A stretch of DNA of 64,000 nucleotides. Origin: Escherichia coli (GTDB lineage Bacteria; Pseudomonadota; Gammaproteobacteria; Enterobacterales; Enterobacteriaceae). The notes beneath the pieces are model-generated. The model made no database searches and was not told the origin of the DNA. It saw only the letters and a list, made by a program, of their open reading frames with translations. The translations under genes were made by a program, and so were the position numbers. The stretch lies in NCBI RefSeq assembly GCF_030384885.1, contig NZ_CP128613.1; one strand, given 5' to 3'. Shown piece by piece: positions 5,022-45,312 of this stretch. Each line of letters opens with the position of its first letter. Position 1 is the stretch's first letter.

Positions 5022-5735
5022 ATGAAGATTTTTTTGGAGAATCTTTATCGTTCTGATTGCTATTTCCTGCCGATAAGAGATAACCAGCAAGACCTTGTCG
5101 GCGTTGAGTTAATTACCCATTTCTCCAGTGAAGATGGTACGGTTCGTATACCGACGAGTCGGGTTATAGCGCAACTTACCGAGGAGCAACATTGGCAATT
5201 ATTTTCTGAGCAGTTGGAATTGCTAAAATCATGCCAACACTTTTTTATTCAACATAAACTCTTTGCCTGGCTTAATTTAACCCCACAAGTGGCTACTTTA
5301 TTATTAGACAGGGATAATTACGCGGGCGAACTATTAAAATATCCGTTTATTGAACTGTTGATTAATGAGAATTACCCGCATCTCGATGAAGGAAAAGATA
5401 ATCGCGATCTTTTGTCCTTATCGCAAATGTATCCCCTTGTGTTAGGTAATTTGGGCGCAGGCAATAGCACAATGAAAGCGGTTTTTGATGGTCTTTTCAC
5501 CCGCGTCATGCTGGATAAAAGTTTTATTCAGCAACAAATCACGCATCGCTCCTTCGAACCGTTTATTCGTGCGCTCCAGGCGCAAATTTCCCCATGTTGC
5601 AATTGCATCATCGCGGGGGGCATTGATACGCCAGAAATAATGGCACAGATTACCCCCTTTGATTTCCATGCTCTCCAGGGATGCCTGTGGCCTGCCGTTC
5701 CTGTAAATCAGATAACGACGTTGGTTCAGCGATAA
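5022..5735 (+). CDS. ydiV: Anti-FlhD4C2 factor, degenerate EAL-domain protein
   Basis: 237-aa ORF recognised as YdiV (MKIFLENLYRSDCYFLPIRDNQQDLVGVELITHF...); position after nlpC as in E. coli. Confidence 0.92.
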   Translation: MKIFLENLYRSDCYFLPIRDNQQDLVGVELITHFSSEDGTVRIPTSRVIAQLTEEQHWQLFSEQLELLKSCQHFFIQHKLFAWLNLTPQVATLLLDRDNYAGELLKYPFIELLINENYPHLDEGKDNRDLLSLSQMYPLVLGNLGAGNSTMKAVFDGLFTRVMLDKSFIQQQITHRSFEPFIRALQAQISPCCNCIIAGGIDTPEIMAQITPFDFHALQGCLWPAVPVNQITTLVQR

Positions 5736-5758
5736 CCCTCCTGTTTGCTGGTGTTTAA

Positions 5759-7440: not shown

Positions 7441-7471
7441 ATAATTGATATAACAATGATTCTTATTATCA
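7441..7471 (-). promoter_or_regulatory. Fur-box-like operator in ydiE promoter region
   Basis: ataattgatataacaatgattcttattatc: AT-rich dyad resembling Fur consensus GATAATGATAATCATTATC, 12-40 nt upstream of ydiE start. Confidence 0.5.
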
Positions 7472-7560
7472 ATATTCTGGCGGGCCAGAGCAAGCAGTAA
7501 TTTGTTGAGAAGACAACAAGTTGCGCAGAAATGCCCATTCCGTCAGGAATGGGCACGCAT

Positions 7561-17739: not shown

Positions 17740-18651
17740 ATGTATCAACGCTGTTTTGATAACGCCAGCGAAACGCTGTTTGTCGCCGGTAAAACGCCAC
17801 GGCTTTCACGTTTTGCATTTAGCGATGATCCAAAATGGGAGTCCGGACATCACGTTCATGACAATGAAACCGAGTTGATTTACGTCAAGAAAGGGGTAGC
17901 AAGGTTTACCATCGATTCTTCGTTATATGTCGCGCATGCCGATGACATTGTGGTGATAGAACGTGGCAGGTTGCATGCGGTGGCCTCTGACGTTAACGAT
18001 CCGGCAACGACGTGTACCTGTGCGCTGTACGGCTTTCAGTTTCAGGGGACTGAGGAAAATCAGCTACTGCAACCGCATTCTTGCCCGGTCATTGCCGCAG
18101 GGCAGGGAAAAGAAGTCATTAAAACCTTATTTAATGAGCTAAGTGTGATTTTGCCGCAAAGTAAAAATAGCCAAACATCTTCGTTATGGGACGCATTTGC
18201 CTATACGTTAGCAATTCTTTACTACGAAAACTTTAAAAATGCTTATCGTTCGGAGCAGGGGTATATTAAAAAAGATGTTCTGATAAAAGATATTCTTTTC
18301 TATCTGAATAATAATTATCTCGAAAAAATCACTTTAGAGCAGTTATCGAAAAAATTTCGTGCCAGCGTCAGTTATATCTGCCATGAATTTACCAAAGAGT
18401 ATCGTATTTCCCCTATTAACTATGTTATTCAACGGCGTATGACGGAAGCGAAATGGTCACTCACTAATACTGAATTATCACAGGCAGAGATCTCCTGGCG
18501 TGTGGGTTATGAAAATGTCGATCACTTTGCCAAACTGTTTTTGCGCCATGTCGGCTGTTCGCCCAGCGATTACCGCAGGCAATTTAAAAACTGTTTTGCG
18601 GAACAAGAAATCCTATCTGAATTTCCTCAACCAGTAAGTCTTGCCGGATAA
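17740..18651 (+). CDS. ydiP: AraC/XylS-family transcriptional regulator
   Basis: 303-aa ORF with C-terminal AraC-type HTH region; divergent from ydiQ operon. Confidence 0.9.
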   Translation: MYQRCFDNASETLFVAGKTPRLSRFAFSDDPKWESGHHVHDNETELIYVKKGVARFTIDSSLYVAHADDIVVIERGRLHAVASDVNDPATTCTCALYGFQFQGTEENQLLQPHSCPVIAAGQGKEVIKTLFNELSVILPQSKNSQTSSLWDAFAYTLAILYYENFKNAYRSEQGYIKKDVLIKDILFYLNNNYLEKITLEQLSKKFRASVSYICHEFTKEYRISPINYVIQRRMTEAKWSLTNTELSQAEISWRVGYENVDHFAKLFLRHVGCSPSDYRRQFKNCFAEQEILSEFPQPVSLAG

Positions 18652-32259: not shown

Positions 32260-32360
32260 ACTATTCTTATCGCCCCTTCAAGAGCTAAGCCACTGTGAGT
32301 GCCGGAGATAAGCGCCGGATGGGGTAGAAACCCTTAAGCCTGTGATGCACAGACTTAAGG
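32260..32360 (+). ncRNA. rydB: Candidate RydB-like small RNA locus (boundaries approximate)
   Basis: ydiH-sufA intergenic region; 5' hairpin (gccgg-agataagc-gccgg) and terminator-like hairpin aaacccttaag-cctgtgatgcacaga-cttaagggttt followed by tcttatttct; RydB is known to map between ydiH and sufA, exact sequence not recalled. Confidence 0.45.
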
Positions 32361-32593
32361 GTTTTCTTATTTCTGAACGCTGCAATTTTTTACCTATCTC
32401 TTAAATAGTCATTTTCAATACAACTTTTTCTTTTTCATCACAGCCTTAATGCTCCTTAGATAATAATCATTATCTAACAATGAGATACCTAATTCTTAGC
32501 GTGCCTGTTAACCCACACATCAGGGTCTATGCTTATTAAAAGCAGGCAAAAAGCATGTTTTACGGTAAAGCCCCTGCGTTTGCTGGGTTGAAC

Positions 32594-32608
32594 TGATAAT
32601 CATTATCA
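32594..32608 (+). promoter_or_regulatory. Fur box in sufA promoter
   Basis: TGATAATCATTATCA, near-perfect Fur consensus core, about 45-60 nt upstream of sufA ATG. Confidence 0.75.
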
Positions 32609-32653
32609 CTAACATGCTGTTATACGCTGAAAGCGATGAAGTGAGGTAAATCG

Positions 32654-33022
32654 ATGGACATGCATTCAGGAACCTTTAATCCACAGGATTTCGCCTGGCA
32701 GGGCTTAACGCTGACACCTGCTGCCGCGGTCCACATCCGTGAGCTGGTGGCAAAGCAGCCGGGTATGGTAGGCGTGCGCTTAGGCGTGAAGCAAACGGGC
32801 TGCGCGGGCTTTGGCTATGTGCTCGACAGTGTTAGCGAGCCAGACAAAGACGATCTGCTGTTTGAACACGACGGCGCGAAGCTGTTTGTCCCGCTGCAAG
32901 CGATGCCGTTTATTGATGGCACGGAAGTCGATTTCGTTCGTGAAGGACTTAATCAGATATTCAAATTTCACAACCCTAAAGCCCAGAATGAATGTGGCTG
33001 TGGCGAAAGCTTTGGGGTATAG
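32654..33022 (+). CDS. sufA: Fe-S cluster A-type carrier
   Basis: 122-aa ORF with C-terminal CGCGESF motif. Confidence 0.96.
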
Positions 33023-42139: not shown

Positions 42140-42347
42140 ATATTCTTAGTTCAGTTGCAGTCCAGTTAATCATTCTAAATAACAACTGCTGAAATTATAC
42201 AAATTTCGGTATGTATTTTAATTTATAGCGCTAATGTTATTTTTATTATCTGTAATGAAAGTCACAAATAATTGTCGGATCAGTTAAATTCATATCAAAT
42301 GATAATAAATATCACTTCACTTATATTTTTTTTCTTTGTGTTTTTAA

Positions 42348-42562: not shown

Positions 42563-45312
<2,750 letters not shown>

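Follow-up and report, generated by a model that had tools for sequence, protein, structure and literature searches.

The sufA control region of Escherichia coli: a Fur operator within the promoter and an upstream Fur-like element that is probably part of the IHF site

The DNA that extends from the RydB terminator to the ATG of sufA (32380-32653 of the window, that is, of the whole 64,000-nucleotide stretch of Escherichia coli DNA analysed here; the ATG is at 32654) is the sufA control region, and it is likely to be a canonical sigma-70 promoter region in which a second, upstream Fur-like element is the arm of an IHF site and not a separate operator. To judge from sequence comparison, that upstream element would probably lack any substantial role of its own as a Fur site. 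The suf promoter, with its layered control, is already known, and the action of OxyR, IHF, IscR and Fur on it is taken from the literature; the anatomy of the region, the pattern of its conservation, its polymorphism and the matrix scores are direct observations of this work.

The gene order in the window is ydiJ-menI-ydiH-rydB-sufABCD, the flanking open reading frames are all on the plus strand, and the elements that delimit the control region and its promoter are the following.

32272-32332, plus strand: rydB small RNA gene (Rfam RF00118, 83 bits, E 1.6e-19), which bounds the control region on its upstream side
32328-32364, plus strand: RydB terminator hairpin, a 17-nt inverted repeat (94% complementary, 3-nt loop) followed by a T-rich tail
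32588-32593, plus strand: -35 hexamer TTGAAC, from its position relative to the start site at 32622, separated from TAACAT by a spacer of 16 bp
32610-32615, plus strand: -10 hexamer TAACAT, 7 nt 5' of the mapped start site and invariant in the multi-species alignment
32622, plus strand: sufA transcription start site (+1), from the K-12 start-site table and the numbering of a Fur-site mutation
32654-33022, plus strand: sufA coding sequence, an open reading frame of 122 amino acids annotated as sufA in K-12 and in strain 2013C-4282

A query of 601 bp that covers the suf control region found a match in 5421 of 5426 complete E. coli genomes, with an identity of 99.8% to strain 2013C-4282 and of 96-97% to most of the others, and every one of the E. 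coli matches sits between ydiH and sufA. The rydB match, the annotation of sufA and ydiH and this identity within the species bear out the assignment of the region to suf that was made in the initial annotation. Downstream of the RydB terminator and as far as the sufA ATG, the window differs from K-12 MG1655 at two bases only, 32385 (A in the window, C in K-12) and 32467 (T in the window, C in K-12).

The coordinate frame used below depends on the start site, on which two independent sources agree. The K-12 start-site table (Kim et al. 2012) holds a single sufA start, at 1762442 and 32 nt 5' of the ATG, and the upstream 51-mer quoted for it ends at window position 32622; the rydB start of K-12 (1762792) corresponds to window position 32272, and this genome-wide table holds no start between those of rydB and sufA. 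The second source is the strain table of PMC12594620, in which the Fur-site-defective PsufA carries ATA -> TAT at -26 to -24. Since the ATA of TGATAAT occupies 32596-32598, this numbering places +1 at 32622.

Two complementarities were also observed in and around the region. The 5' arm of the RydB terminator, TTAAGCCTGTGATG (32334-32347), is 93% complementary to CATCACAGCCTTAA (32436-32449), 88 nt downstream, and this complementarity is weaker in K-12 (about 11/14 by hand count). An inverted repeat of 11 nt, AAAAGCATGTT / AACATGCTGTT (32549-32559 and 32611-32621, 91% complementary), has one arm upstream of the IscR site and the other in the segment of the -10 hexamer and the start site.

Fur sites were scored with a palindromic matrix of 19 bp that represents a single dimer and was trained on 20 K-12 sites, sufA excluded, drawn from the footprinted regions and strong clusters of K-12 given in Chen 2007 (PMC2189734). 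The training sites themselves score between 9.0 and 27.8 bits when each is left out in turn, with a median of about 21. Conservation was followed in the sufA loci of 80 Enterobacteriaceae, for 78 of which the 300 nt upstream of the gene were aligned.

32592-32610, no strand assigned: proximal Fur operator, the 19-mer ACTGATAATCATTATCACT, at -30 to -12; 20.5 bits

The proximal element is a real and conserved Fur operator of the suf promoter. Its core, TGATAATCATTATCA (32594-32608, that is, -28 to -14), has no mismatch to the 7-1-7 consensus TGATAATNATTATCA and is the only such match in the 64 kb window, and the 19-mer ranks second among 63,982 window positions on the sufA-free matrix. The box scores between 18 and 26 bits in all 78 aligned Enterobacteriaceae and lies 60-65 nt 5' of the ATG in nearly all of the 80 species; in addition, the published mutation taken to abolish Fur control falls inside it (32596-32598). 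In the information-theory scan of K-12, sufA has one Fur cluster, of 31 bp and with three overlapping sites, placed at -53 from the ATG and scored at 21.3 bits (Chen 2007). The initial annotation had described a Fur core adjacent to the sufA promoter, and the operator, exact at 32594-32608, stands as described, but its location has to be corrected: it sits within the spacer between TTGAAC and TAACAT and overlaps the core promoter, instead of lying beside it.

Other positions of the window resemble Fur sites as well. The strongest match to the matrix, AATGATAATAAATATCACT (42298-42316, 21.5 bits), is found in the pykF-ydhY intergenic region, 255 nt 5' of an open reading frame of 208 amino acids that begins at 42563, and it maps to the ydhY Fur cluster that Chen 2007 (PMC2189734) predicted and listed without experimental support. 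By coordinate mapping, a cluster at 7449-7473 with scores of 20.5 and 18.1 bits is the counterpart of the one that the same study gives for ydiE (hemP-like). A Fur-like 19-mer of 16.8 bits, TTTAAAAATGCTTATCGTT (18232-18250), falls inside an open reading frame of 303 amino acids (17740-18651, plus strand) and is probably an intragenic chance site or one without a regulatory role.

The second Fur-like element of the control region lies much farther from the promoter, next to the IHF core.

32459-32477, no strand assigned: upstream Fur-like element tagATAATAATCATTATCtaa (= GATAATAATCATTATCTAA), at -163 to -145; 13.7 bits
32467, no strand assigned: variable base at -155, with T in the window, C in K-12 and G in some strains
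32475-32487, plus strand: IHF core TAACAATGAGATA, at -147 to -135; 2 mismatches to WATCAANNNNTTR in Escherichia

The upstream element, also noticed in the initial annotation, is a real Fur-like sequence, although it had been slightly misquoted: the 16-mer AATAATAATCATTATC is absent as typed, base 32459 is G, and the local sequence reads tta-G-ATAATAATCATTATC-taa (or tta-GATAATAATCATTATC-taa), with ATAATAATCATTATC at 32460-32474. Its best 15-mer, TAATAATCATTATCT (32461-32475), deviates from the 7-1-7 consensus at 2 positions, and the element has in common with the proximal operator the exact 12-mer ATAATCATTATC, which occurs at 32463-32474 and again, 133 bp away, at 32596-32607. With the T allele of the window the 19-mer ranks sixth in the 64 kb, and its score goes down to 11.2 bits with the C of K-12 and to 10.5 bits with G; among the 20 training sites, only those of fur (9.0) and tonB (9.6) score below 13.7 bits. 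A score of at least 13.7 bits is expected by chance about 0.014 times in the 211-bp upstream region with its own base composition, so the resemblance to Fur sites is real and goes beyond base composition alone. This resemblance is most likely explained by the overlap with another conserved AT-rich protein site.

That site is probably the one for IHF. At the aligned position, 42 of the 78 species have a perfect IHF core WATCAANNNNTTR, 24 have a core with one mismatch and 12, all Escherichia among them, a core with two; the window itself is at the level of two mismatches, which occurs 518 times in the 64 kb. In Salmonella and Citrobacter, perfect cores (TATCAACATATTA and AATCAATGCATTG) align to window positions 32475-32487. 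The start of the core lies exactly 119 bp 5' of the Fur 15-mer in 69/78 species, and the position of the site is fixed between the conserved distal OxyR block and the promoter. The site as a whole (32457-32495) carries the A/T-rich GATAATAATCATTATC directly 5' of the core, and the family consensus, AAA-t-n-CATTAT-t-WATCAAnnnnTTR, has the usual layout in which an A-tract precedes the IHF core.

The Fur-like palindrome lies over this A/T-rich arm. Its right half, CATTAT, is conserved among the 78 species, whereas the left half is poorly conserved and its form GATAATAAT is specific to Escherichia. The homologous 19-mer scores between 10.2 and 13.7 bits in six Escherichia lineages, and its median in 72 species outside the genus is -1.1 bits, with a maximum of 11.3 and none at 13.7. 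Because the core is conserved, its distance of 119 bp is fixed, CATTAT is the only conserved part of the palindrome and base 32467 is variable, the upstream element most likely belongs, on these comparisons, to the known IHF site, of which it would form the AT-rich 5' arm. The suggestion, also made in the initial annotation, that the element might be a composite IHF/AT-rich site is the one that these data favour, and the element would form the 5' flank of an IHF core that keeps both its sequence and its distance from the promoter across the Enterobacteriaceae.

The polymorphism at -155 adds to this picture. Of the bases of the element, T at 32467 contributes most to the Fur match, and it completes the exact 12-mer repeat. 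With two 41-nt queries centred on this base and designed so that only exact allele seeds match, the T allele was counted in 2139 of the 5426 complete E. coli genomes (39%, O157:H7 among them) and the C allele in 3268 (60%, K-12 among them), and G is found in a few. E. albertii, E. whittamii and Salmonella also have T, as does one cryptic clade; another clade has C, and Citrobacter G or C. In the family alignment the column (C in 31, T in 20, G in 17 and A in 10 of the 78 species) is the least constrained of its block. Free variation among T, C and G at this base argues against a functional Fur half-site, in which the key base would be expected to be constrained.

The other sites of the control region are arranged on both sides of the IHF site.

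32383-32419, plus strand: OxyR site, at -239 to -203; best window match to ATAG-N7-CTAT-N7-ATAG-N7-CTAT
32521-32542, no strand assigned: near-invariant block CAGGGTCTATGCTTATTAAAAG, at -101 to -80, from its conservation across 78 Enterobacteriaceae
32567-32592, plus strand: IscR type-2 site AAAGCCCCTGCGTTTGCTGGGTTGAA, at -55 to -30; overlaps the -35 hexamer and abuts the Fur 19-mer

Lee et al. reportedly gave, in 2004, limits within the PsufA of K-12 of -236/-197 for OxyR, -156/-127 for IHF and -56/-35 for IscR, and these limits agree with the positions found here. The OxyR site matches 14 of the 20 specified positions of the consensus, three of its four tetranucleotides being good, and its block CCTATCTCTTAAATAGTCATTTTCAATAC is strongly conserved across the 78 species. 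According to a review of suf control, the binding of OxyR takes place at a large distance upstream of the promoter, and OxyR needs IHF to activate suf. A third Fur-like 19-mer, TTAAATAGTCATTTTCAAT (32401-32419, 12.3 bits), lies within the conserved OxyR site, and weaker Fur-like scores appear at the homologous position, about 253 nt 5' of the ATG, in many genera; this is likely a consequence of the overlap between the OxyR and Fur motifs.

The IscR site, whose block is conserved across the 78 Enterobacteriaceae, agrees with 24/24 positions of AWARCCCYTSnGTTTGMnGKKKTKWA, a consensus that derives in part from this very site, which makes the test partly circular; PsufA is described as a type-2 promoter activated by IscR (PMC12594620). 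Elsewhere in the window, ATAACCCTCCTGTTTGCTGGTGTTTA (5732-5757) differs from the IscR type-2 consensus at one position and lies near 1,791,300 of K-12 by coordinate mapping, probably in the promoter of ydiU, a gene named as an IscR type-2 target.

The near-invariant block between the IHF and IscR sites is as conserved as the Fur box, yet it is covered by none of the sites for OxyR, IHF, IscR and Fur. A/T tracts follow it at 32538, 32548 and 32558, about 10 bp apart, and this periodicity may reflect intrinsic curvature. NsrR has been reported as a repressor of suf, and its half-sites match the block at about 6 of 11 positions by eye, for which reason it was set aside as a candidate at -101 to -80; inspection by eye of the same segment for an IscR type-2 site, a marbox, a Fis site, a sigma-54 promoter or a second OxyR site gave nothing convincing.

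Taken together with the published action of the four proteins, these observations suggest a model of how the region would work. OxyR would bind far upstream (approximately -239 to -203), and a bend induced by IHF at approximately -165 to -130 would bring it toward RNA polymerase, while apo-IscR would activate from the type-2 site (-55 to -30). Fe-Fur would repress from one high-affinity operator placed in the spacer between the -35 and -10 hexamers (-30 to -12), which abuts the IscR site and from which it would block the polymerase. As for the upstream element, CATTAT(C/T) would be the family-wide part of the IHF site, and the left half GATAATAAT would have arisen in Escherichia, completing by chance a palindrome that resembles a Fur site.

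An unlikely reading is that the element could be a genuine secondary Fur site of low affinity that lies over the IHF site, in which case the Fur of iron-replete cells would compete with IHF and damp activation by OxyR, and the alleles at -155 would tune this gating between lineages. The matrix scores are compatible with it and, by sequence alone, make the T-allele element a credible Fur site of weak to moderate strength, given that the T, C and G alleles (13.7, 11.2 and 10.5 bits) all fall within the range of footprinted sites, that 13.7 bits is more than the best fur (9.0) and tonB (9.6) sites reach by leave-one-out, that such a match is rarely expected by chance (about 0.014) and that all six Escherichia lineages have at least 10 bits. 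The IHF core of Escherichia, with its 2 mismatches, is unusually degenerate, and the function of the site may have changed in the genus; moreover, the element directly adjoins this core, so the joint binding of Fur and IHF would be impossible, and the literature reports Fur on weaker sites under anaerobic growth. Against all this, the element is not conserved outside Escherichia and its key base at -155 varies freely.

The only partner of the element is at an offset of 3 bp (32456, 7.2 bits), a spacing that is common within Fur clusters (Chen 2007), but overlapping partners spaced by 6 bp, which are present in all 11 initial footprinted Fur sites of E. coli (Chen 2007), are missing: the Fur matrix gives nothing above 0 bits at +/-6 bp. 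Among the strong clusters of that study (at least 17.1 bits) only the proximal one is listed for sufA, although the K-12 allele, with 11.2 bits, is below the range of the table anyway. Finally, the papers and reviews on suf that were consulted describe one Fur site, the mutation of which is treated as removing Fur control.

A more specific proposal of the same kind, and quite a doubtful one, is that the IHF arm of Escherichia might have turned into a composite IHF/Fur site while the IHF core degenerated, so that Fe-Fur bound at -154 would exclude IHF, the induction driven by OxyR would become dependent on iron, and the gating would differ with the lineage defined by -155. Depending on which of T, C and G stands at this base, the Fur score that the matrix predicts changes by 2.5-3.2 bits.

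It is highly improbable that the two boxes cooperate, with Fur dimers at -154 and -21 looping the intervening DNA for tighter repression. The proposal is suggested by the presence of two Fur-like palindromes with a common exact 12-mer 133 bp apart, but this centre-to-centre distance amounts to 12.7 helical turns, which leaves the sites out of phase and on different faces of the helix, and the upstream site is missing in most of the species that keep the proximal box. In addition, Fur is known to extend over adjacent overlapping sites and not to bridge distant ones by a loop (the model of Chen 2007, PMC2189734), and the DNA in between is taken up by the IscR site and by a conserved block that would serve other factors. 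Looping by Fur was rejected on the grounds of helical phase and lack of conservation. More generally, the cooperative or alternative repression from two Fur boxes that the initial annotation considered finds no support, in view of a likeness limited to Escherichia, a polymorphic key base, the single cluster of Chen 2007 and the out-of-phase distance of 133 bp.

Barely credible, in turn, is the idea that the upstream Fur box covers the -10 hexamer of a second suf promoter, ATCACA-16-GATAAT (32437-32464). This is the single sigma-70-like match of the scan, with 9/12 positions and GATAAT as its -10, and a Fur box over a -10 hexamer is the classical layout of a repressor, but one match compares with 1.5 expected in shuffled sequences, the -35-like hexamer is not conserved, and K-12 has no start site between those of rydB and sufA, so that the K-12 table gives no promoter near the element (centred at -154) with which it could overlap; the candidate was rejected as a match at chance level that lacks a start site. 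Least credible of all is an origin of the element as a remnant copy, made by local duplication, of the segment with the Fur box and the -10 hexamer (ATAATCATTATC..TAACA), which was rejected in spite of the exact 12-mer repeat and the similar bases that follow it (TAACAATG vs ACTAACATG), given that TAACAA aligns to the IHF core WATCAA, that the family-wide ancestor of the upstream copy, as seen in the outgroups, shares only CATTAT with the Fur box and that the repeat is only 11/12 in K-12, from which it follows that the similarity grew by point changes in Escherichia and not by copying.

The IHF-arm reading is therefore kept for the upstream element. As it stands, the analysis re-identifies a textbook promoter and matters little for that reason. 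It does carry a caution for the motif-based prediction of regulons, namely that a look-alike of a Fur box can arise within an IHF site, and that in E. coli this look-alike depends on the allele, K-12, the strain used for all experiments, having the weaker C allele. If Fur were indeed bound in strains with the T allele, the gating by iron of the induction of Fe-S assembly under oxidative stress would vary naturally.

With respect to known systems, the closest is PsufA of K-12 itself (Lee 2004; Outten 2004; Yeo 2006; Lee 2008; Mettert and Kiley 2014), which has the same start site, Fur box, IscR type-2 site and positions for IHF and OxyR. From the RydB terminator up to the ATG it differs from the window only at 32385 and 32467, and the T of the window at -155, in place of the C of K-12, gives the IHF arm the exact 12-mer of the Fur core and raises its Fur score by 2.5 bits.

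The footprinted weak operators of fur and tonB, scored at 12.3 and 11.5 bits by Chen 2007 (PMC2189734), offer a second comparison, in which the upstream element of the window has the higher score on the matrix used here (13.7 vs 9.0 and 9.6 bits). However, the operators of fur and tonB overlap promoters, whereas the element of the window is 150 bp upstream, in the site of another protein, and it has neither partners spaced by 6 bp nor conservation.

The third comparison is with the H' site of phage lambda, an IHF site in which an A-tract is followed, after about 8 bp, by WATCAANNNNTTR. The consensus of the suf family, AAA-tn-CATTAT-t-WATCAAnnnnTTR, has the same layout; in Escherichia, by contrast, the suf site has a degenerate core with 2 mismatches (TAACAAnnnnATA), and its A-tract arm has the sequence GATAATAAT. 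As in other promoters assisted by IHF, the suf IHF site is located between the site of a distal activator and the promoter.
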